A DNA stretch of 64,000 nt from NCBI GenBank assembly GCA_022828135.1, contig JAJEJB010000003.1, forward strand, positions 514 to 64,513. Reading direction: 5' to 3'. The notes below the pieces were generated by a model. The model searched no databases. It worked only from the letters and a program-made list of their open reading frames with translations, and was not told the DNA's origin. The translations under genes and the position numbers were made by a program. This DNA comes from Acidimicrobiia bacterium. GTDB lineage: Bacteria; Actinomycetota; Acidimicrobiia; Acidimicrobiales; Aldehydirespiratoraceae. This document shows positions 22,839 through 61,897 of the stretch, one piece after another (the stretch's first letter is position 1; each line of letters starts with the position of its first letter).

Positions 22839-24110
22839 TCAGGCCCTGTCCTCGACCGGGTCGGACTGCTCATCGGCGCGGGCGGCCTCGCTGTCACGGA
22901 TGCCGCGCCCGCTTCGCACCGCCCGGACCAGCAGAAGGGCCGCTCCGGCGAACACCAGCAGCGACACGACGGTGACCGCGGCCTCGCTCCAGCCCTGCTC
23001 GCGGCCCACGTCCAGGGCGGTCAGGAACAGGAACCAGCCCAGCGCCACCGGTATGAGAGCCTTCCATCCGAGGTCCATGAGCTGGTCGTAGCGGAACCGG
23101 GGCAGCGTGGCCCGCATCCATACGAAGCAGAACAGCAGCACGAACAGTTTCAGGAAGAACCAGACCACGCCCCACGCCCAGGCGATGCCGACGCCGCCCA
23201 CCTCGCTCACCAGCACCGGACCGGCCGGCCCGCCGAAGAACAGGGTGACGATGATGGCCGACATCGTGATCGTGTTCATGAACTCGGCCAGGAAGAACAG
23301 CGCGAAGCGGATCGACGAGTACTCGGTATGGAACCCGCCCACGAGCTCCTGCTCGGCCTCGACCAGGTCGAAGGGCGGGCGGTTGAGCTCGGCCGTGCCT
23401 GCGATCATGAACACGATGAAGGGCACCAGTCCGGTGACGATCACGTTCCAGCGGGGGATGATGCCGAAGTACCCCTCGGCCGCCTGCGCAACCACCATGT
23501 CATGGGTGGACAGGCCTCCGGTCACCAGCACGATGGATGCCACCGCCAGACCCAGCGCGGCTTCGTAGCTCACCATCTGCGCCGACGCCCGCACCGATCC
23601 CAGCAGGGGGTACTTGGACCCCGACGACCACCCGGCCAGCATCACCCCGTAGACGGCCACCGAGCTCATGGCCAGGAAGAGCAGGATCCCGATCGGCGGG
23701 TCGGCCACCTGGAGGTAGGTGGTGCGACCCCACCATTCGACCTGCCCAGCGTTGTTGAAGTCTCCGCCCAGCGGAACGATGGCGAAGGCCAGGAAGGCCG
23801 GGATGAGCGACAGGTACGGCGCCAGCTTGAACACGAACCGGTCCGACCGGTCCGGCACCAAGTCCTCCTTGAAGAAGAGCTTCGTGCCGTCGGCGAGGGT
23901 CTGCAGGATGCCGAAGGGTCCGGCGATCGTGGGCCCGAACCGCTGGTGCATCCCTCCCAGCAGCTTGCGCTCGAACCAGATCATCAGCATCACGGCCACC
24001 AGCAGGAACGCGAAGGCCACCACCACCTTGGCCAGCGTCAACACGACCTCGACCAGGCCGATGTCGCCGGCCAGCATGGGATCGGCGGCCAGCACGAGGG
24101 TGCCGCTCAT
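22839..24110 (-). CDS. nuoH: NADH-quinone oxidoreductase subunit H (copy 2), with extra C-terminal TM plus hydrophilic tail
   Basis: 423-aa product with WFERKLLGGMHQRFGPTIAGPFGILQTLADGTKLFFKEDLVP and EYSSIRFALFFLAEFMN. The tail reads ...SGRGIRDSEAARADEQSDPVEDRA. Confidence 0.93.
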   Translation of the reverse strand: MSGTLVLAADPMLAGDIGLVEVVLTLAKVVVAFAFLLVAVMLMIWFERKLLGGMHQRFGPTIAGPFGILQTLADGTKLFFKEDLVPDRSDRFVFKLAPYLSLIPAFLAFAIVPLGGDFNNAGQVEWWGRTTYLQVADPPIGILLFLAMSSVAVYGVMLAGWSSGSKYPLLGSVRASAQMVSYEAALGLAVASIVLVTGGLSTHDMVVAQAAEGYFGIIPRWNVIVTGLVPFIVFMIAGTAELNRPPFDLVEAEQELVGGFHTEYSSIRFALFFLAEFMNTITMSAIIVTLFFGGPAGPVLVSEVGGVGIAWAWGVVWFFLKLFVLLFCFVWMRATLPRFRYDQLMDLGWKALIPVALGWFLFLTALDVGREQGWSEAAVTVVSLLVFAGAALLLVRAVRSGRGIRDSEAARADEQSDPVEDRA

Positions 24111-26698
24111 CGGGCTTCCACCTCGACCGCCGTGACGTCGGTGCCCGCGGCGATTAGAGAGTTGGCCGGCGAGCCGGGTGCCAGCCAGTGGACCCTCAGC
24201 GAGCCGGCCGGAACACCCCGGTCGGCGGTCAGGGTCGCCTCGATGTGACCGAAGTCGGATACGACCCTCACCGCGGCGCCTTCGCCCAGACTGCTCCTGT
24301 CAAGGTCGGCCGGGTTGATGCGGGCGGATGCGGCTGGGGCCAGGCCTTGGCTCGACGGGCAGTGGCGCAACATTGTGCCGTCGTCGTACATGGTGCGGGT
24401 GGCCACCAGCAGGAATGCTCCGTCGGGTGGGGGCTCAGGTAGGTCCTCCCGGCCGGCGGGTCCTGTCGCAGGCTCCGTCCGGCCGACGGGGCTTCGCCCC
24501 ATTGTCGGCCGCCCGGACCTGCGCCACCCCCCGGCCTTGCCGGTCGCGCCCGCCCCCGCCAGCAACACACCTTCGACTGGATTCTCTTGCAACGCCTGCT
24601 CGGTGAGCGAGCTGTGGACGGAGGAGACTCGGGCTAGTTCGGCTCTTATGGCTTGGGGGGAGTCGAGGCCTTCGGTTGAGCCTGGCTTGAGCCTTTCGGC
24701 CAGGTCGGCCGCGATCATCCAGTCGGGGCGTGATGTTCCCGGCGGGGTGACCTTGCGGCTCATGGGGCTGACCCGACCCTCCAGATTGGTGAACGTGCCG
24801 TCGCATTCGGTGGGACCAGCGGCTGCAAGCACGATCTCGGCGGCCAGTGTGGCCGAGTCGTTCAGGAACATGTCCACCGCCGCGACGAGGGACGCCCCCC
24901 GCAGGCCCCGGTAGGCGAGGTCGCGGTCGATGAAGTCGTTCAAAGGATCGGCGCCGACGAGCACGAGCACGTCGATGTCGCCACGAGCGGCTGCCCGGAG
25001 AACGCTGGCGGCATCCAGCCCTGCGGCCGCCGGACGCCGCGGCCAGGCCTCTGCTAGGGATCCCTCGTCTTCGACGCCGTCAAGCCGCACTCGGCCGGGT
25101 AGCAGCTCCGGCGCCAGTCCTGCCTCCAGCGCGCCCATCACGTTGCCCCTCCGCAGCGCGGGCAGGAAGCGCACCGACGGCAGCGCTGACAGTTCCATCG
25201 CAGCTGCCTCGACCACCTCTGCTCCCTCGGCCAGCGACGCCCGGCCCAGCACAGCTGTCACGCCGTCATCAGCCTCTGCAAGGCACTGCGCCGCCGCTTC
25301 GATCTCGGACCGGTCCACGCCGGTGCTTCCGGCCTCGAACCCGTCGCCGACAGCCGCAGCCACCAATGCGCTCACCAGTTGAGCCGCGGTGCCGGGGCGG
25401 GGGCGCAGCGAGTGCTGGGCCAGGTGCGACAGGCCGGTCTCGCACGGTGTGACCTCGATCAGCTTCACTCCGTCGTTGACGATCCCGTGGCGCAGCCGCA
25501 GGTACAGCGTGCCCAGCTCCTCCTTGGGGTCGGGACCGATCAGAACCACGGTGCCGCCGGGCCGGCAGGCATCGTCGATGGTGGCTCTGGGCAGGCCGAG
25601 GACCACTGCGGGGTCGAGGCCGTCGCCGAGTTGGGCGTCGACGTTGTCGGTGCCGATCACTCCCTTGGCCAGCTTGGCCCACATGTACTGAGCCTCGTTG
25701 GTGAGCCGGGCCCCGCCCAGCACGGCCACACGCTCGGGCGGCACCGCGCCCACCGCGCCGGCGATCCGGTCGAGAGCCTCGCCCCAGCCGGCCTCCTGCC
25801 ACTCTGAAACCCCACCGCCTGCTGCGTCCCTCAGCATCGGCGCAGTGAGGCGCTCAGCGCTGTTTAGAGCCTCGAAGCCGAAGCGCTCCTTGTCCGTCAG
25901 CCAGCCCCAGTTGACGGCGTCGGCGTCGGCGCCCAGCACCCGCAGCACCCGGTTGCGCGACGCCTGCACCGCCACCCTGGCTCCCACGCTGTCGACCCAG
26001 GCGGTGGACAGCGTCTCGGTGAGATCCCAGGGCCGGGCCTTGAAGCGGTACGGCGCTGCGGTCAGTGCGCCCACCGGGCAGATCTGAACGGTGTTGCCCG
26101 AGAAGTACGAGGCGAATGGCTCATCGGGGAACGTGTTGACCTCGGTGTGATTGCCGCGGCCCATGAACTGGATCAGGGCGTCGCCGGCCACCTCGTCAGC
26201 GAAGCGGGTGCAGCGATCGCACAGGATGCAGCGCTCCCTGTCGAGGTAGACGGTCTCGCTGATGGCGATGGGCTTGGCGAAGTGACGCTTCTCCTCCACG
26301 AAACGGGTCTCCCCCGGCCCGTACGCCATGGTCTGATCCTGGAGGGGGCACTCGCCGCCCTTGTCGCATACCGGGCAGTCGAGCGGGTGGTTGATGAGCA
26401 GGAACTCGAGCACGCCGTCCTGGGCCTTCTTGGTGACCTCGGACTCGGTGGACACCTTCATGCCCTCCGACACCGGCACCATGCACGAGGGCTGCAGGGC
26501 GAAGCCGCGCCCAGTGTCCACCTCCACCAGGCACATGCGGCACATCCCCACCGGGCTCATCCGCGAGTGGTAGCAGAACCTCGGGATGTAGGTGCCGCTG
26601 CGCTCGCACGCCTCGATCAGCATCTCTCCCGGCGTTGCCTGCACCGCGACGCCGTCGACGGTGATCTCCACGGCAGTCCCGAGTTCTGCCGCGGTCAC
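24107..26698 (-). CDS. nuoG: NADH-quinone oxidoreductase subunit G (copy 2), carrying an in-frame repeat-element insertion
   Basis: 863-aa product with an N-terminal 2Fe-2S/4Fe-4S region (IPRFCYHSRMSPVGMCRMCLVEV, HPLDCPVCDKGGECPLQDQ, ERCILCDRCTRF) and a molybdopterin-fold remainder. Residues ...AGGWRRSGRPTMGRSPVGRTEPATGPAGR... are encoded by repeat family C. Confidence 0.93.
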   Translation of the reverse strand: MTAAELGTAVEITVDGVAVQATPGEMLIEACERSGTYIPRFCYHSRMSPVGMCRMCLVEVDTGRGFALQPSCMVPVSEGMKVSTESEVTKKAQDGVLEFLLINHPLDCPVCDKGGECPLQDQTMAYGPGETRFVEEKRHFAKPIAISETVYLDRERCILCDRCTRFADEVAGDALIQFMGRGNHTEVNTFPDEPFASYFSGNTVQICPVGALTAAPYRFKARPWDLTETLSTAWVDSVGARVAVQASRNRVLRVLGADADAVNWGWLTDKERFGFEALNSAERLTAPMLRDAAGGGVSEWQEAGWGEALDRIAGAVGAVPPERVAVLGGARLTNEAQYMWAKLAKGVIGTDNVDAQLGDGLDPAVVLGLPRATIDDACRPGGTVVLIGPDPKEELGTLYLRLRHGIVNDGVKLIEVTPCETGLSHLAQHSLRPRPGTAAQLVSALVAAAVGDGFEAGSTGVDRSEIEAAAQCLAEADDGVTAVLGRASLAEGAEVVEAAAMELSALPSVRFLPALRRGNVMGALEAGLAPELLPGRVRLDGVEDEGSLAEAWPRRPAAAGLDAASVLRAAARGDIDVLVLVGADPLNDFIDRDLAYRGLRGASLVAAVDMFLNDSATLAAEIVLAAAGPTECDGTFTNLEGRVSPMSRKVTPPGTSRPDWMIAADLAERLKPGSTEGLDSPQAIRAELARVSSVHSSLTEQALQENPVEGVLLAGAGATGKAGGWRRSGRPTMGRSPVGRTEPATGPAGREDLPEPPPDGAFLLVATRTMYDDGTMLRHCPSSQGLAPAASARINPADLDRSSLGEGAAVRVVSDFGHIEATLTADRGVPAGSLRVHWLAPGSPANSLIAAGTDVTAVEVEAR
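24449..24534 (-). repeat. Repeat family C copy inside the nuoG coding sequence (in frame)
   Basis: The reverse complement of 24449-24534 reads ccggggggtggcgcaggtccgggcggccgacaatggggcgaagccccgtcggccggacggagcctgcgacaggacccgccggccgg. It is near-identical to the intergenic copy at 61799-61886. Confidence 0.85.
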
Positions 26699-26733
26699 GA
26701 CGCGACCCCCGCGGTCCTGCGCGACCGGTGAGG

Positions 26734-26826
26734 TCGGGGGGTGGCGGCGAGTCGGGACGACCGACGAATAGGGCGAAGCCCGTGGCGGTCGGGCCGAGCT
26801 CGCCGACAGGACCCCCCGACCGGCGG
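26734..26826 (+). repeat. Repeat family C-related copy in the nuoG-nuoF intergenic gap
   Basis: It reads cggggggtggcggcgagtcgggacgaccgacgaatagggcgaagcccgtggcggtcgggccgagctcgccgacaggaccccccgaccggcgg. It shares the ggggggtggcg head, the GGGCGAAGCCC hairpin core and the gcgacag/gccgacag tail with family C. It fills most of an unusual 139-nt gap inside the operon. Confidence 0.7.
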
Positions 26827-26837
26827 GCGCGCGCCGG

Positions 26838-28256
26838 TCACTGGCTCGCTCCTACGGGGACTACCTCGATAGGGATGGGGTCTCGGCGGGTGATCTTGGC
26901 TTCGTACTCGTGGCGGAAGCGGCGGATGGTGGACACCACCGGGGCCACTGCGGAGGGTCCGAGCGGGCAGATGGTGGTCTGGCGGGGCGGAAAGGGCACC
27001 GCCTCTTGGCCGTTGTGGGCAGCCACCGGGTATGGGCCGGGGCTGATGTTGTCGCCTATGTCGAGCAGCAGGTCGATGTCGGAGGGCCGGCCCTCCCCGT
27101 CGAGGATGCGGCGCAGGATCTGTTCCAGCCAGGTCGTGCCCTCACGGCACGGAGTGCACTTCCCGCACGACTCGCGGGCGAAGAACTTCACCACTCGCCA
27201 CGCAGCCTTCACTGCGTCGGTGGTGTCGTCCATGATCACGATGGCACCGGATCCGAGCATCGAGCCGGCCGCACCCACCGGCCGCGCTTCCAGCGGCAGG
27301 TCCAGGTGCTCGGCGAAGAACCAGGGAGCCGAGCCGCCGCCGGGGATGAACATCTTGAGCTCGTGCCCGTCGCGTATCCCCTGGCAGAAGTTGTCGCCGT
27401 AGATCAGCTCCCGAAACGTGGTCACCCCGTGCTCGACCTCGTACACCCCGGGGCGGCGCAGATGGCCCGACACCGCGAACATCCGCGTGCCCGGCGACGA
27501 CTCCGACCCGTAGCGGCGGTAGGCCTCGGCTCCGTTGACCATCATCCAGGGCAGGTTGGAGAGGGTCTCCACGTTGTTGACGATGGTGGGCTGGCCGTAG
27601 AGGCCGACGGCGGCCGGGAAGTACGGCGGCTTGAGGCGGGGCATGCCCCGGCGGCCCTCCAGGCTCTCGATGAGCGCGGTCTCCTCGCCCACGATGTAGG
27701 CCCCCGCGCCCCACGCCATCACGATGTCGACCGAGAAGTCCGTGCCACAGATGCCGCGCCCCACGTAGCCGGCCTCGTAAGCCTCGTTGAGGGCGGCCGC
27801 TATGCGCTCCTGGGCCAGGGCCATCTCGCCCCGCACATACAGGAAGCACTGCTGCAGTCCCAGCGCGTAGCAGGCGATCAGGCACCCCTCGATGAGCTGG
27901 TGGGGATCGCGCTCCATGAGCAGGCGGTCCTTGTAGGTGCCCGGCTCGCTCTCGTCGCCGTTGACGACGAGGTAGTAGGGATGCTTGCCCGGCGGCAGGA
28001 AGCCCCATTTGACGCCGGCGGGGAACCCGGCGCCGCCCCGTCCCAGCAGCGTGGCCGCCCGTACTTCGTCATGCACCGCCGCCGGAGTCGTCTCCAGCGC
28101 GGCCCGGAGCCCCTCATAGCCCCCGGTCGCCTCGTAGCGCGCCAGGGTGAACGAATCGTCGTGCGTGAAGCGGCTCGTGATGAGCTTGGGGCCGTCGTTG
28201 TGCACATAGCCGGGCGCGTGCGCGATGTAGCCGTTCACAGCCATCTGCTGATCCAT
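26838..28256 (-). CDS. nuoF: NADH-quinone oxidoreductase subunit F (copy 2)
   Basis: 472-aa product with GRGGAGFPAGVKWGF (the FMN/NADH site) and ESCGKCTPCREG (N3 cluster). There is an ATGA overlap with the nuoE stop. Confidence 0.95.
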   Translation of the reverse strand: MDQQMAVNGYIAHAPGYVHNDGPKLITSRFTHDDSFTLARYEATGGYEGLRAALETTPAAVHDEVRAATLLGRGGAGFPAGVKWGFLPPGKHPYYLVVNGDESEPGTYKDRLLMERDPHQLIEGCLIACYALGLQQCFLYVRGEMALAQERIAAALNEAYEAGYVGRGICGTDFSVDIVMAWGAGAYIVGEETALIESLEGRRGMPRLKPPYFPAAVGLYGQPTIVNNVETLSNLPWMMVNGAEAYRRYGSESSPGTRMFAVSGHLRRPGVYEVEHGVTTFRELIYGDNFCQGIRDGHELKMFIPGGGSAPWFFAEHLDLPLEARPVGAAGSMLGSGAIVIMDDTTDAVKAAWRVVKFFARESCGKCTPCREGTTWLEQILRRILDGEGRPSDIDLLLDIGDNISPGPYPVAAHNGQEAVPFPPRQTTICPLGPSAVAPVVSTIRRFRHEYEAKITRRDPIPIEVVPVGASQ

Positions 28257-28870
28257 CAGCCAGCCACCTCGACGTCGTTGCGGCCCAGCCAGACGGGCGC
28301 TTCGCGGGCCTGCTCGGGCGGGATGACCCCGGCGAGACGCTCGGCGGGGATCGACTGCCTCACGGCGGACAGGGCGCCGTGGCGGGGAATGTCAAGACGG
28401 CTGGCGCGCAGGTCGTCGACCAGCCGGTCGAAGTCGTCGTGGGTTACCCGGCCCCGGTAGCGATAGTTGACCTGCAGGCACGGTGCTTCGGTGCAGGCCG
28501 CGATGCACTCCGCTTCCTCGAGGGTGATCATGCCGTCGTCGGTAGTTCCTCCGACCTCCACCCCCAGCGACTCGGCGGCATGGTGCAGAAGCTCCTCGCC
28601 GCCCCACAGAAGGCAGGAGATGTTGGTGCAGACGTTGATCATGTACGTGCCTACCGGCTCGAAGCGGAACATCTCGTAGAAGCCGGCTGTTCCCTTCACC
28701 TCGGCCGGGGTGGCCCCGACCAGTTCGCCGATGTGACGCATGGCGTCGTCGGTCAAGTAGCCGTCCTGCTCCTGCGCGAGGTGGAGCAGCGGGATGAGGG
28801 CCGAGCGGGACCGGGGGAACCACGAGATGATCTCGGCGGCCAGCGCCTCGTTGGCAGGACTGAGCGTCAC
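28256..28870 (-). CDS. nuoE: NADH-quinone oxidoreductase subunit E (copy 2)
   Basis: The start was trimmed to GTG (cac 28868-28870): VTLSPANEALAAEIISWFPRSRSALIPLLHLAQEQDGYL.... The 2Fe-2S ligands CTNISC...CIAACTEAPC are present. The upstream part of the track ORF translates the tandem repeat and is not NuoE-like. Confidence 0.88.
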   Translation of the reverse strand: MTLSPANEALAAEIISWFPRSRSALIPLLHLAQEQDGYLTDDAMRHIGELVGATPAEVKGTAGFYEMFRFEPVGTYMINVCTNISCLLWGGEELLHHAAESLGVEVGGTTDDGMITLEEAECIAACTEAPCLQVNYRYRGRVTHDDFDRLVDDLRASRLDIPRHGALSAVRQSIPAERLAGVIPPEQAREAPVWLGRNDVEVAG

Positions 28871-28905
28871 CGGCCCGCCTCCGGCATCGACAGGCGGCGG
28901 ACGCC

Positions 28906-29061
28906 GGTGCTCGACTTGCGAGTGAGTAGGGCGAAGCCCGTGCGAGCAAGCGAGCACCGGTGGCCGTCGCCGGGACGAACGGGGGTGCTCGACTTGCGAG
29001 TGAGTAGGGCGAAGCCCGTGCGAGCAAGCGAGCACCGGTGGCCGTCGCCGGGACGAACGGG
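28906..29061. repeat. Tandem duplication (2 x 78 bp) of a hairpin element in the nuoD-nuoE gap
   Basis: The unit is ggtgctcgacttgcgagtgagtagggcgaagcccgtgcgagcaagcgagcaccggtggccgtcgccgggacgaacggg, at 28906-28983 and 28984-29061. GTGCTCGACTTGC pairs with GCAAGCGAGCAC around the same GGGCGAAGCCC core seen in family C. Confidence 0.9.
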
Positions 29062-29063
29062 CC

Positions 29064-30353
29064 TCACCGGTCGACCTCGCCCATGATCGGGTCCACCGAG
29101 GAGATGATGGCCACGCCGTCGGCGATGAGACCGTCCTGCATCAGGTGCGGCAGGGTCTGGAGGTTCACGAAGCTGGGCGCCCTCACGTGCACCCGGTACG
29201 GCACTGACGTGCCGTCGCTCACCAGGTACACGCCGAGTTCGCCCCGCGGGGATTCCACCGCGGCGTAGGCCTCTCCGGCCGGGACCTTGAACCCCTCGGT
29301 GAAGATCTTGAAGTGGTGGATCAGCGCCTCCATCGATTCGTCGATGCGGGCCCGGGGCGGCGGCGTCACCTTCTTGTCCTGCGTCCGGTAGTCGCCTGAG
29401 GGCACCGCGTCGATGATCTGCGCGACGATGCGCAGCGACTCGCGGATCTCGTTGAGGCGGATGGCATACCGGTCGTAGCAGTCGCCGTGGGTTCCCACGA
29501 TGACGTCGAAGTCCACCTGGTCGTAGAACAGGTACGGCTCGTCGCGCCGCAGGTCCCAGGCCATTCCCGCGCCGCGCAGTATCGGCCCGGTGGCCCCGAG
29601 GGCGACGGCTTCGGCGGCACTGATGATGCCCACCCCTTGGAGCCGCTCACGCCAGATGGGCTGGCCGGTCAGCAGCGTGTCGTACTCGTCGAGTCGAGGC
29701 TCGATCAGCTCGATCAGCTCCGACACGTCGGCGCGCCAGTCGGCGGGCAGGTCGGCGGCCACGCCTCCGGGCCGGATGTAGTTGTGGTTCATGCGCAGGC
29801 CGGTGACCTTCTCGAAGAAGCGCAGCACCTCCTCGCGCTCGCGCCACCCGTAGATCATCATCGACACCGCACCCAGGTCCATGCCGTTGGTGGCCATGAA
29901 CAGCAGATGCGAGCTGACCCGGTTGAGTTCGCACATCAGCATGCGGATCCAGGTGGCCCTCGCGGGTACTTCGATGCCCAGCAGCCGCTCCGTGGCCAGC
30001 GAGAACGCCAACTCGTTGAAGAGCGGCGAGGCGTAGTCCATGCGGGTCACATTGGTGCCGCCCTGGAGGTACGTGAGCTGCTCGCCGGTCTTCTCCATGC
30101 CGGTGTGGAGGTAGCCGATGACCGGCTTGGAGCGCAGCACGGTCTCGCCCGAGAGTTCCAGCATCAGCCGCAGCACTCCGTGGGTCGACGGGTGGGACGG
30201 ACCCATGTTCAGCAGCACCAGCTCGTCGTCGCCGGGGTCGTCGGGGTCGCCGCCGATTGCCGCGGCCTCGGCCTCCGACATGCGCAGCACCGCGGAGGGC
30301 TCTCTCCGGCTGACCCGCTCTGCGCCTGCGGGTGCGATGTCGGTGGTGCTCAT
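29064..30353 (-). CDS. nuoD: NADH-quinone oxidoreductase subunit D (copy 2)
   Basis: 429-aa product with LNMGPSHPSTHGVLRL and the C-terminal MGEVDR. Confidence 0.95.
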   Translation of the reverse strand: MSTTDIAPAGAERVSRREPSAVLRMSEAEAAAIGGDPDDPGDDELVLLNMGPSHPSTHGVLRLMLELSGETVLRSKPVIGYLHTGMEKTGEQLTYLQGGTNVTRMDYASPLFNELAFSLATERLLGIEVPARATWIRMLMCELNRVSSHLLFMATNGMDLGAVSMMIYGWREREEVLRFFEKVTGLRMNHNYIRPGGVAADLPADWRADVSELIELIEPRLDEYDTLLTGQPIWRERLQGVGIISAAEAVALGATGPILRGAGMAWDLRRDEPYLFYDQVDFDVIVGTHGDCYDRYAIRLNEIRESLRIVAQIIDAVPSGDYRTQDKKVTPPPRARIDESMEALIHHFKIFTEGFKVPAGEAYAAVESPRGELGVYLVSDGTSVPYRVHVRAPSFVNLQTLPHLMQDGLIADGVAIISSVDPIMGEVDR

Positions 30354-61757: not shown

Positions 61758-61798
61758 AGAACAAGTGCTCCAGTTGCGGGAGCGCGCGGCCGGCTAGG

Positions 61799-61886
61799 CC
61801 GGGGGGTGGCGACGGGTCCGGGCGGCCGACAATGGGGCGAAGCCCCGTCGGCCGGACGGAGCCCGGCGACAGAACCCGCCGGCCGG
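61799..61886 (+). repeat. Repeat family C, intergenic copy between convergent ligC and the exonuclease gene
   Basis: It reads ccggggggtggcgacgggtccgggcggccgacaatggggcgaagccccgtcggccggacggagcccggcgacagaacccgccggccgg. It contains nested inverted repeats around GGGGCGAAGCCCC. Confidence 0.85.
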
Positions 61887-61897
61887 AACAGCCAGCC

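Follow-up and report, generated by a model that had tools for sequence, protein, structure and literature searches.

The nuoG gene, which encodes subunit G of NADH-quinone oxidoreductase, lies at positions 24107 to 26698 on the minus strand of the window, the whole 64,000-nucleotide stretch of DNA that was analyzed. From the open reading frame (ORF) list and its translation, the gene has a GTG start and encodes 863 amino acids, with the complete NuoG set of Pfam domains: Fer2_4, NADH-G_4Fe-4S_3, Fer4_Nqo3, Molybdopterin (residues 283 to 669), and Molydop_binding (residues 762 to 858). The closest relative of this protein in the PDB is M. smegmatis NuoG (8e9g_G). An earlier note on this DNA had proposed that nuoG carries a repeat in frame, and we located the 86-nt sequence at 24449 to 24534 on the minus strand, within the 863-amino-acid ORF. 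It is an A-type hairpin core, of the variant designated A86, and encodes residues 723 to 750. The proposed read-through peptide GGWRRSGRPTMGRSPVGRTEPATGPAGR corresponds exactly to these residues, but the unit itself proved longer than 86 nt. A conserved leader of 15 nt, GCGCGACCGGCAAGG, stands 5' of the core in most copies; therefore, the complete covariance-model match in nuoG, composed of the leader, the core, and 3 nt, covers 24446 to 24549 on the minus strand (100.4 bits, E = 8e-17 with the R1 model), and the element with its flanks encodes residues 718 to 752. Peptides that span residues 718 to 758 or fall inside them include TEPATGPAGR and EDLPEPPPDGAFLLVATR, and the A86 peptide GGWRRSGRPTMGRSPVGRTEPATGPAGRED is identical among species of three clades.

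The insert had been placed in a linker immediately before the C-terminal block of NuoG, and our analysis agrees on both counts. The block DGAFLLVATRTMYDDG comprises residues 759 to 774 and follows the read-through peptide, and the insert precedes the C-terminal domain, standing where M. smegmatis NuoG has a 17-residue linker (residues 669 to 685 of 8e9g_G). In the AlphaFold model of NuoG, coil with pLDDT values below 50 falls exactly at residues 717 to 752, and the domains on either side score 85 to 95. As modeled, the insertion point is a structurally permissive surface position, and the insert probably forms a disordered loop. Conservation of the reading frame suggests that the insert is translated as part of NuoG.

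The nuoG element was predicted to fold into a hairpin, as had been described, with a minimum free energy of -62.4 kcal/mol (z = -5.2), and none of 200 shuffled sequences was as stable. A single 33-bp hairpin is kept by 39 distinct copies of the repeat, with 98.1% of cells paired and compensatory changes in 10 of the 33 pairs; the observed score was reached by 0 of 500 shuffles, and sliding the register of the pairing reduced the paired fraction to 22 to 45%. The full unit is one hairpin of approximately 105 nt. After the 15-nt leader comes a basal stem, which is conserved and carries an asymmetric internal loop (GGCCGGGGGGTGGCG ... CGACAGGACCCGCCGGCC), and inside this stem sits an exchangeable interior hairpin, which is of type A, of type B, or missing ("mini"). 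The unit is bounded by an 11-nt terminal inverted repeat with one mismatch, GGCCGGGGGGT / ACCCGCCGGCC, invariant in the 39 copies. Every frame of the GC-rich repeat unit is open. Although the hairpin is GC rich, the element does not qualify as an intrinsic (Rho-independent) terminator: no T-run follows the hairpin on either strand, and so the U-tract is absent. At the gathering score, Rfam 15 returned only a tRNA in the window, and at E <= 10 the element gave chance miRNA-precursor matches only, at 12 to 15 bits.

The segment belongs to an interspersed, hairpin-forming family of the MITE/REP type that is read in frame in NuoG, as had been proposed. The 3.69-Mb genome contains 10 A-type copies, 3 B-type copies, and 1 termini-only mini copy, in addition to solo termini; 10 full copies were counted with the covariance model at E <= 1e-13. 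The family was matched in 33 of the 39 genomes of Candidatus Aldehydirespirator, with up to 38 copies in each and hundreds genus-wide; no copies were counted in G003, G010, G013, G037, G041, and G043, in contrast to genomes with more than 20. A covariance-model search of 120 other genomes of the order gave one weak match only. When 400 Actinomycetota genomes, drawn evenly, were scanned with a strict pattern for the basal module, 3 matches of chance-like character emerged, against 2 for the reversed control. Judged by these searches, the family appears confined to Candidatus Aldehydirespirator and essentially absent outside it. The genus comprises sponge-associated Acidimicrobiia, and the genome analyzed here has a GC content of 69%.

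An intergenic A-type copy lies at 61784 to 61889 on the plus strand (R1 match, 105.3 bits), between convergent genes whose stops are 26 nt and 8 nt away. Its 88-nt core, at 61799 to 61886, is indeed nearly identical to that of nuoG (94.3% over 88 aligned columns), but with 5 differences rather than the two or three previously counted. In this genome all 13 noncoding copies are intergenic; approximately 10 of them follow a stop codon at a distance of 2 to 33 nt, and convergent genes flank 6 of them. The nuoG site is the sole coding site found among the copies examined, 13 of the 14 copies in the genome being intergenic. Eight long-frame tblastn matches of the insert peptide in relatives were candidates for further coding insertions, but each turned out to be located between genes or upstream of one. 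One orthologous spacer between convergent genes is, depending on the species, empty or occupied by a single A, two or three A units, three B units, a mini, or solo termini. The spacer thus holds 0, 1, 2, or 3 units; arrays are direct tandems, with a period of 111 nt for type A.

Copies of hairpin repeats also occupy two junctions of the nuo operon. The nuoF-nuoG spacer holds a diverged A-type copy at 26719 to 26826 on the plus strand, antisense to the operon (90-nt core; R1 match, 90.2 bits); the segment from 26734 to 26826, which is 79% identical, had correctly been recognized as a diverged relative. Orthologous copies are present in 7 other species, and further species have an empty junction with a 4-nt overlap; overall, the copy is found in approximately 11 of 27 loci, in both orientations. 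The spacer contains a relay ORF of 48 amino acids (26695 to 26841, minus strand), whose GTG overlaps the TGA of nuoF and whose TGA overlaps the GTG of nuoG. Six other species share this conserved relay arrangement: it is likewise seen in L028, L030 (58 amino acids), L036, L044, and L046, and in G042 the relay ORF has 40 amino acids and the repeat copy is in the other orientation. The nuoD-nuoE spacer carries two tandem 78-nt hairpin repeats (28898 to 29053) of a second interspersed family, D14, which has 5 copies in the genome and shares the GGGCGAAGCCC apex. Here a relay ORF of 66 amino acids (28867 to 29067, minus strand) begins with a GTG that overlaps the nuoD stop and ends with a TGA that overlaps the GTG of nuoE. 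Both relay ORFs have a GTGA overlap at each end.

The nuoG site is occupied by type A in 12 of the 39 genomes and by type B in at least 8 genomes (9 loci), is occupied by a mini in G012, and holds remnants or nothing elsewhere. Since occupancy extends across the crown of the genus, colonization of the site must be old, and the insertion does not mark a recent event. Nor did orthologues free of the element show a clean 29-residue gap; instead, they have a linker 24 amino acids shorter, with unrelated filler. Element-free alleles of the linker measure 123 to 135 nt versus 198 nt, with no alignable junction, and a clean empty site is not recoverable because the linker evolves too fast. The note had also considered that nuoG might be the source of the intergenic copies, as would be expected if close orthologues carried the segment and the genomes held no other copies of it. 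Close orthologues do carry it, but other genomic copies are abundant, which gives the direction as from the family to nuoG; the intergenic copies do not derive from nuoG, given that this genome has at least 14 copies of the repeat and that 33 of the 39 genomes carry the family.

Type A residents of nuoG occur in three separate clades, and their monophyly was rejected (p-AU 1.6e-27), the placement in clades using the NuoG gene tree in place of a species tree. The type A element in nuoG has an average identity of 98%, reaching 100% between the three clades, versus 81% for the flanking 300 nt; the A86 core is identical at 86 of 86 positions in nuoG of species from all three. The immediate 75-nt flanks of the element track the species tree and not the cassette type. 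A86 is also found at intergenic positions in G018 and G044, again with 86 of 86 positions identical, and one of the B copies located between genes in the genome analyzed here is identical to the type B resident of nuoG in other species. The nuoG residents measure 86, 77, 80, and 35 nt, every length being 2 mod 3, and the intergenic A copies sampled (n = 28) measure 88, 90, or 87 nt. Interiors other than A encode unrelated peptides, GGWHGGKEWRRLRRQAAPVTGPAGR for the B resident and GGWPAPGPAGR for the mini resident, and some nuoG copies (L030 and L032) have stem-breaking substitutions. Another NuoG insert, near residue 500 in G008, was tried as a repeat and rejected: it folds well but is single copy in its own genome.

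Traces of mobility were sought in the same genomes. The Y1_Tnp domain of RAYT transposases (PF01797) was detected in 0 of the 39 genomes of the genus, including the genome analyzed here, and the control genomes responded. In this genome, no distant pair of termini brackets a gene as a parent insertion sequence (IS) would; termini occur only as element pairs 35 to 90 nt apart or as solo remnants, and the terminal 5' motif at two mismatches is too common in a GC-rich genome to be informative. As neither a RAYT transposase nor a partner IS was found, strict membership in the REP or MITE class is not established. Flanking direct repeats vary by site: CCGG at the C25 site (empty in L122 and filled in L110), the 7-bp GTGACCG at nuoF-nuoG, the 7-bp CCGGTGA at nuoD-nuoE, and none that is clear at nuoG. 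Being inconsistent in length, these candidate target-site duplications are only suggestive.

The explanation that we consider probable is that a genus-specific, nonautonomous hairpin repeat has long resided in the NuoG linker, where it is read through and where its interior has been swapped under selection for the reading frame. Membership of the segment in the family, covariation of the hairpin, and occupancy of the site across species are direct observations, as are the polyphyletic distribution of type A, its high identity relative to the flanks, the frame rule, and the relay ORFs. A copy would have entered the linker between the molybdopterin-like and C-terminal domains in an ancestor shared by most of the genus. 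Since all frames of the unit are open and the resident lengths keep the frame, ribosomes are expected to read through the nuoG element, and the product may be a disordered loop of approximately 35 residues, rich in Gly, Arg, and Pro, that Complex I tolerates. The interior would since have been replaced repeatedly by other family members, at nuoG as at intergenic sites. Recombination or gene conversion at the conserved termini is the most likely route of this exchange and would be anchored in their 20 to 26 nt, a length that is short for RecA-type recombination. Selection on the reading frame in nuoG would admit only variants with a length of 2 mod 3, and the requirement for read-through would extend to nuoF-nuoG and nuoD-nuoE, where the repeats sit within relay ORFs that preserve the 4-nt stop/start overlaps. 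Alternatively, an ancestral allele under very strong selection could account for the perfect identity of A86 in three clades.

Two other explanations were weighed. If the nuoG hairpin were kept for a role in the mRNA, it would be an internal site of pausing, processing, or partial termination. Jointly with the related hairpins at nuoD-nuoE and nuoF-nuoG, it would determine how much of the upstream nuo products is made relative to the downstream ones, and the peptide would be a by-product. The contrast in nucleotide identity between element (98 to 100%) and flanks (approximately 81%), the continued occupancy of the nuoG site in much of the genus, the clustering of three hairpin repeats in the nuoD-to-nuoG segment, the very stable predicted hairpin (-62 kcal/mol), and the location of noncoding copies at gene 3' ends, like that of terminator or stabilizer elements, are all consistent with such a role. 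However, the site is empty or degenerate despite an otherwise intact operon in G001, G003, G006, G010, G014, G015, and G017; the A, B, and mini residents differ completely in their interiors; the nuoF-nuoG copy is patchily distributed and lies in both orientations; the hairpins have no following T-tract; and the stems of the L030 and L032 copies are broken. We therefore regard an mRNA role as unlikely. A Gly/Arg/Pro-rich loop co-opted for a function in NuoG, such as signaling assembly or making a contact, with protein-level selection on the ancestral A86 allele, would account for the peptide shared by three clades and for a frame that is always preserved. This we find harder still to accept: the conservation extends to synonymous sites, for which selection on the protein offers no explanation, the B and mini interiors encode unrelated peptides, the loop is predicted to be disordered, identical DNA stands at intergenic sites, and several species have no insert.

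The genome is a metagenome-assembled genome (MAG) of 59 contigs. Because misassembly classically arises at repeats, a collapsed or misjoined repeat was also considered, along with nuoG as the source of the intergenic copies. We deem both scarcely credible. The same insert stands at the same codon position in 12 genomes, including the single-contig chromosomes G005, G018, G042, and G044, and it interrupts neither the ORF nor the conserved domains that flank it; intergenic copies of the family number in the hundreds over 33 genomes, and among them are subtypes and tandem arrays that have not been seen in nuoG. The sharing among 12 genomes and the intergenic-only subtypes contradict this reading. 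A more far-reaching proposal, which we offer as a doubtful one, is that the hairpin cassettes are host maintained and not just selfish DNA that is tolerated: a trans-acting factor recognizing the invariant basal stem and its ACAGG/GG internal loop would swap, amplify, and lose interiors site-specifically at fixed addresses, and the cassettes would act as translation-dependent punctuation in polycistronic mRNAs. If so, they would be kept in operons only where they are translated, as relay ORFs or in NuoG.

The closest known systems to this repeat, read as an old, frame-selected resident of NuoG, are the mycobacterial MIRUs and the Rickettsia RPEs. MIRUs are described as actinobacterial GC-rich units of 40 to 100 bp with internal inverted repeats and imperfect terminal ones (Supply et al. 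1997, cited through Delihas 2011, PMC3184786), present in tens of copies per genome, located in intercistronic operon spacers with ORF ends that overlap the neighbors, and forming tandem arrays of variable copy number, with short direct repeats at filled sites (PMC3184786). The present family is alike in its Actinomycetota host, GC-rich unit, internal inverted and imperfect terminal inverted repeats, tens of copies, operon-spacer copies with ORFs overlapping the flanking genes, variable tandem arrays, and short direct repeats at some filled sites. It differs in forming a single long hairpin of 33 bp, whose basal stem is conserved and whose interior can be exchanged, in its many copies between convergent genes rather than in operons, in its one copy in coding sequence, and in its confinement to Candidatus Aldehydirespirator. 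The resemblance is one of architecture, not drawn from sequence comparison.

RPEs are described as palindromic repeats of approximately 100 to 150 bp, in frame in unrelated housekeeping genes (Ogata et al. 2000; PMC10969869, PMC3184786), with the extra peptide translated at fold-compatible positions and, in R. conorii, 44 insertions, nearly half of them in ORFs (PMC10969869, PMC3184786). The nuoG element is similar in being a palindromic repeat of comparable length, with an in-frame copy in an intact ORF at a position predicted to be permissive, with intergenic copies elsewhere. In contrast to RPEs, intragenic insertion is not frequent, with one coding site among all copies examined, and the host is a symbiont whose free-standing genome has 69% GC, rather than one that is reduced and AT rich. 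To our knowledge, exchange of cassette variants at one codon position has not been described for RPEs. REP elements are approximately 35 bp long and are mobilized by the Y1 (RAYT) transposase. Like REP/BIME elements (REPINs), the present repeats are GC-rich extragenic palindromes at 3' ends or between convergent genes, modular, clustered, and evolving in concert, but they form a single hairpin of approximately 105 nt and direct tandem arrays rather than inverted pairs, and the Y1_Tnp search was negative in all 39 genomes of the genus. Among the modular pneumococcal repeats (BOX, RUP, and SPRITE), BOX elements are modular in make-up, and SPRITE has a terminator-like form. With these repeats and with MITEs, the family shares a nonautonomous nature, imperfect terminal inverted repeats, stable RNA folds, and occasional in-frame fusions; it differs in that the search of this genome yielded no parent IS sharing its ends, target-site duplication is inconsistent, and there is no U-tract.

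This is a case, outside Rickettsia and in a high-GC actinobacterial symbiont, of a core respiratory enzyme whose gene contains an in-frame palindromic repeat in many species. The site is a natural experiment, with one codon position holding different repeat variants by species, all of frame-preserving length, so that selection on the reading frame visibly filters which members of a repeat family are allowed in a gene. The nuoG copy and the relay ORFs jointly suggest that repeats persist in the nuo operon where ribosomes read through them. In the annotation of sponge-symbiont MAGs, these elements will give rise to spurious "novel domains" and small ORFs and to polymorphism in length, and the variable tandem arrays could be used as strain markers, as MIRU-VNTR loci are.

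The 86-nt element core that the earlier note had placed within nuoG was found at window positions 24449-24534 on the minus strand, inside an 863-aa open reading frame (24107..26698, minus) that encodes the full NuoG domain set, namely Fer2_4, NADH-G_4Fe-4S_3, Fer4_Nqo3, Molybdopterin (residues 283-669) and Molydop_binding (residues 762-858). The insert peptide, GGWRRSGRPTMGRSPVGRTEPATGPAGR, corresponds to residues 723-750 and lies upstream of the conserved NuoG block DGAFLLVATRTMYDDG (residues 759-774). Alignment of the copies with their flanks revealed a conserved 15-nt leader, GCGCGACCGGCAAGG, ahead of the CCGGGGGG start, and because this leader belongs to the unit, the full nuoG match to R1, a covariance model built for the type A element, runs from 24446 to 24549 (minus). 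By these alignments, the repeat unit exceeds 86 nt in length. At 94.3% identity, the copy at 61799-61886 is near-identical as previously described, but it carries 5 differences in 88 columns rather than the two or three claimed; the relative at 26734-26826 is indeed diverged, being 79% identical to the nuoG element.

The earlier note had also proposed a genome-wide copy count and a fold of the element. Searches of the 3.69-Mb genome (68.8% GC) with BLAST, nhmmer and R1 returned 10 full type A copies over 8 contigs, and a single long hairpin was predicted for either strand; the mRNA strand gave -62.4 kcal/mol (z = -5.2), a stability that none of 200 shuffles reached. From weaker family matches we recognized type B (3 copies in this genome), which has the leader and termini of type A (CCGGGGGGTGGC ... 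GACAGGACCCGCCGGCCGG) with a different interior hairpin, and a mini form (1 copy) consisting of the termini alone; a few solo termini are also present. A 33-bp structure was scored over 39 distinct type A copies drawn from several genomes; 98.1% of its cells were paired, and 10 pairs showed compensatory changes. The observed covariation was matched by 0/500 shuffles, and pairing fell to 22-45% in a register-slid control. Type A copies vary neither in the basal stem with its GG/ACAGG internal loop nor in the apical GGGGCGAAGCCCC; the covarying part is the middle stem.

The genus was recognized from NuoG relatives as Candidatus Aldehydirespirator (Acidimicrobiia), several of whose records bear isolate names resembling sponge-metagenome bins. 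R1 matched 33 of the 39 genomes of the genus, with up to 38 copies per genome, counts in relatives being lower bounds. Outside the genus, it matched neither of 2 genomes from another genus of the Aldehydirespiratoraceae, a family treated as sponge-associated (PMC11706023), and gave 1 weak match in the remainder of 120 genomes from the order. Searching 400 Actinomycetota genomes with a stringent basal-module pattern produced only chance-level matches, and Rfam held no corresponding family. Y1/RAYT transposases were absent from all 39 genomes of the genus, and no distant pair of termini flanking a gene was seen in this genome, where all copies other than the one in nuoG are intergenic. About 10 of them lie 2-33 nt past a stop codon, and 6 occupy spacers of convergent genes, with the remainder between co-directional genes. 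The repeats are not canonical intrinsic terminators, because no T-tract follows the hairpin in the sequences examined. Eight candidate "in-frame" matches in relatives all lay upstream of genes or between them, and nuoG was the sole coding site found for the family.

We aligned the NuoG proteins of the genus and scored element forms at exactly the same linker position. The type A peptide GGWRRSGRPTMGRSPVGRTEPATGPAGRED was detected with a variant-specific pattern in 12/39 genomes, the type B peptide GGWHGGKEWRRLRRQAAPVTGPAGRE at 9 loci, the mini peptide GEAGGW-PAPGPAGRE in G012 and a degenerate remnant, AAGWPVSSE, in 3 genomes; in about 6 genomes, among them the basal species of the genus, the linker had no element. 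The clean gap of ~29 aa sought in orthologues was not observed, because empty alleles hold unrelated filler; the EGVLL-to-MYDDG distance is 123-135 nt in these alleles, compared with 198 nt in the nuoG described here. In a single-gene NuoG tree from which variable columns were left out, type A occurs in three separate clades, each adjoining B-bearing lineages, and at least 8 state changes are required at the nuoG site. Enforcing a single type A clade, a group named after the tree was seen, cost 266 log-likelihood units (p-AU 1.6e-27).

In the nine A-bearing species compared, mean identity over the 86-nt core is 98%, and representatives of the three clades agree at 86/86 positions, whereas identity is 81% over the adjoining 300 nt on each side and 82% in the 15-nt leader. 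The 75-nt flanks track the gene tree (within-clade A-B pairs, 0.71-0.81 identical; cross-clade A-A pairs, 0.63-0.83). What A-bearing species share is limited to the element itself. By our own arithmetic, the neutral probability of zero differences in 86 nt at ~20% divergence is ~5e-9. The contrast between core and flanks therefore points to either recent exchange of the cassette or unusually strong constraint. We favor exchange because the type B sequence in nuoG (G011 and others) recurs without change in an intergenic type B copy of the present genome (C13:70914), because the 86-nt core resident in nuoG also occurs between genes (86/86 identical in G018 and G044; 80/86 at the nuoF|nuoG junction of G042), because some nuoG copies (L030 and L032) carry stem-breaking changes, and because one orthologous convergent-gene spacer shows the same polymorphism. 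That spacer (C25:91198-91303 in the present genome) is empty, at 9-22 nt, in three species and elsewhere holds a single type A copy of varied subtype, two or three type A copies, three type B copies, a mini copy, a mini array or solo termini. Long identical tracts are confined to the 20-26 nt of invariant sequence at either end of the cassette (the leader with the 5' end, and the 3' end with GAGGA); under exchange, the crossovers would likely have occurred there. The spacer is itself a VNTR-like locus: at L126 (G001), L128 (G006) and L137 (G002) it holds tandem arrays of 2 or 3 type A units, with a 111-nt period, or of 3 type B units.

Core lengths at the nuoG site are all 2 mod 3 (type A, 86 nt; type B, 77 and 80 nt; mini, 35 nt). 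The 28 measurable intergenic type A cores are 88 nt (18), 90 nt (8) or 87 nt (2) long, and none is 86 nt. The commoner 88-nt form would break the nuoG frame, and the rarer 86-nt form is the only type A form in nuoG. No stop codon occurs in any of the six frames of the element, which is unremarkable at ~80% GC (estimated chance, ~15%); because all six frames are open, read-through is limited only by length. The frame-preserving length pattern is the best available evidence for the putative translation of the segment within NuoG. From a nonexhaustive search of the literature, we know of no precedent for variant cassettes being exchanged repeatedly at a single codon position or for a visible frame filter on repeat variants.

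In empty nuoF|nuoG junctions, the nuoF stop and nuoG start overlap (GTGA or ATGA). The spacer here is 139 nt long and is filled by a type A copy of 90 nt that is antisense to the operon. Through this copy runs a 48-aa relay ORF (26695..26841, minus) whose GTG overlaps the nuoF TGA and whose TGA overlaps the nuoG GTG. A 7-bp direct repeat, GTGACCG, lies on either side of the insertion. The same arrangement is present at L028, L036, L044 and L046; L030 has a 58-aa relay ORF following a 30-nt insertion, and the G042 copy has the opposite orientation and a 40-aa relay ORF. At least 6 other species keep the arrangement, whichever way the element points, and G011 has a mini copy that is in frame with nuoG. 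At the G002 junction (L027) the leader occurs three times and the 3' end twice, a partial internal duplication of the element ends. The nuoD|nuoE spacer holds two tandem 78-nt hairpin units of a second repeat family (28898-29053), flanked by CCGGTGA and traversed by a 66-aa relay ORF (28867..29067, minus) with GTGA overlaps at both ends. The genome contains 5 copies of this second family, the others being on contigs C1, C4 and C20; it has only the GGGCGAAGCCC apex in common with the type A/B family. The reading frames suggest that the repeats at both junctions would also be embedded in translation.

Such overlapping ends are a property described for the MIRUs of mycobacteria, in which the ends of the ORFs overlap adjacent genes of the polycistron, filled sites carry short direct repeats and the TIRs are imperfect (PMC3184786). 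MIRUs are the closest system in architecture, both they and the present family being actinobacterial and intercistronic and having relay ORFs as well as variable tandem arrays. In-frame palindromic repeats are also known, the Rickettsia RPEs being the classic case (PMC10969869, PMC3184786) and the closest system for the nuoG instance. Unlike REP/RAYT elements, the present family has no RAYT, and that assignment was not supported; nor was strict MITE membership, as a parent IS was not found in this genome and TSDs were inconsistent. Since the repeat is MIRU- and RPE-like yet differs from REP/RAYT elements and strict MITEs, we conclude that it is a new family of a known kind of element, restricted to Candidatus Aldehydirespirator.

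In the alignment to Mycobacterium smegmatis NuoG (8e9g_G), residues 691 and 753 pair with 668 and 686, respectively; the intervening 61 residues, 35 of them element encoded, stand in place of a 17-residue linker. In an AlphaFold model built with a 35-sequence alignment, residues 717-752 are coil with pLDDT below 50, compared with 85-95 in the adjoining domains, and this span coincides exactly with the leader-plus-element peptide. Gly, Arg and Pro are abundant in the insert peptide. The most economical reading of the model is that the insert is a tolerated, predicted disordered surface loop. Confidence was also below 50 at residues 99-224, despite strong sequence conservation in this Fe-S cluster-binding region, probably owing to the shallow alignment and absent cofactors and not to disorder.

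Further variation was seen in NuoG. At the same linker, OZ220727 (L040) carries a different basic segment, GGESGGRLGSIRRPRSRRLHSSTATKPASIRD, with no covariance-model match, which could be either a decayed copy or a different element, and G044 (L044) has a partial duplication of the element ends, encoding ATGPAGRED twice. G002, with 9% contamination, has two nearly identical nuoG loci (C2:227730-230306 and C3:35805-38381), each with a B-type insert, that probably represent two strains in one bin. In other species of the genus, additional in-frame inserts of 20-60 aa occur at further linker positions, near residue 300 in L013 (G011), at about 455-500 in L012, L014, L016, L017 and L018, and near 545 in L014. 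One of these inserts, in G012, is a long acidic run, and the insert in G008 was rejected as a repeat, being single copy in its genome.
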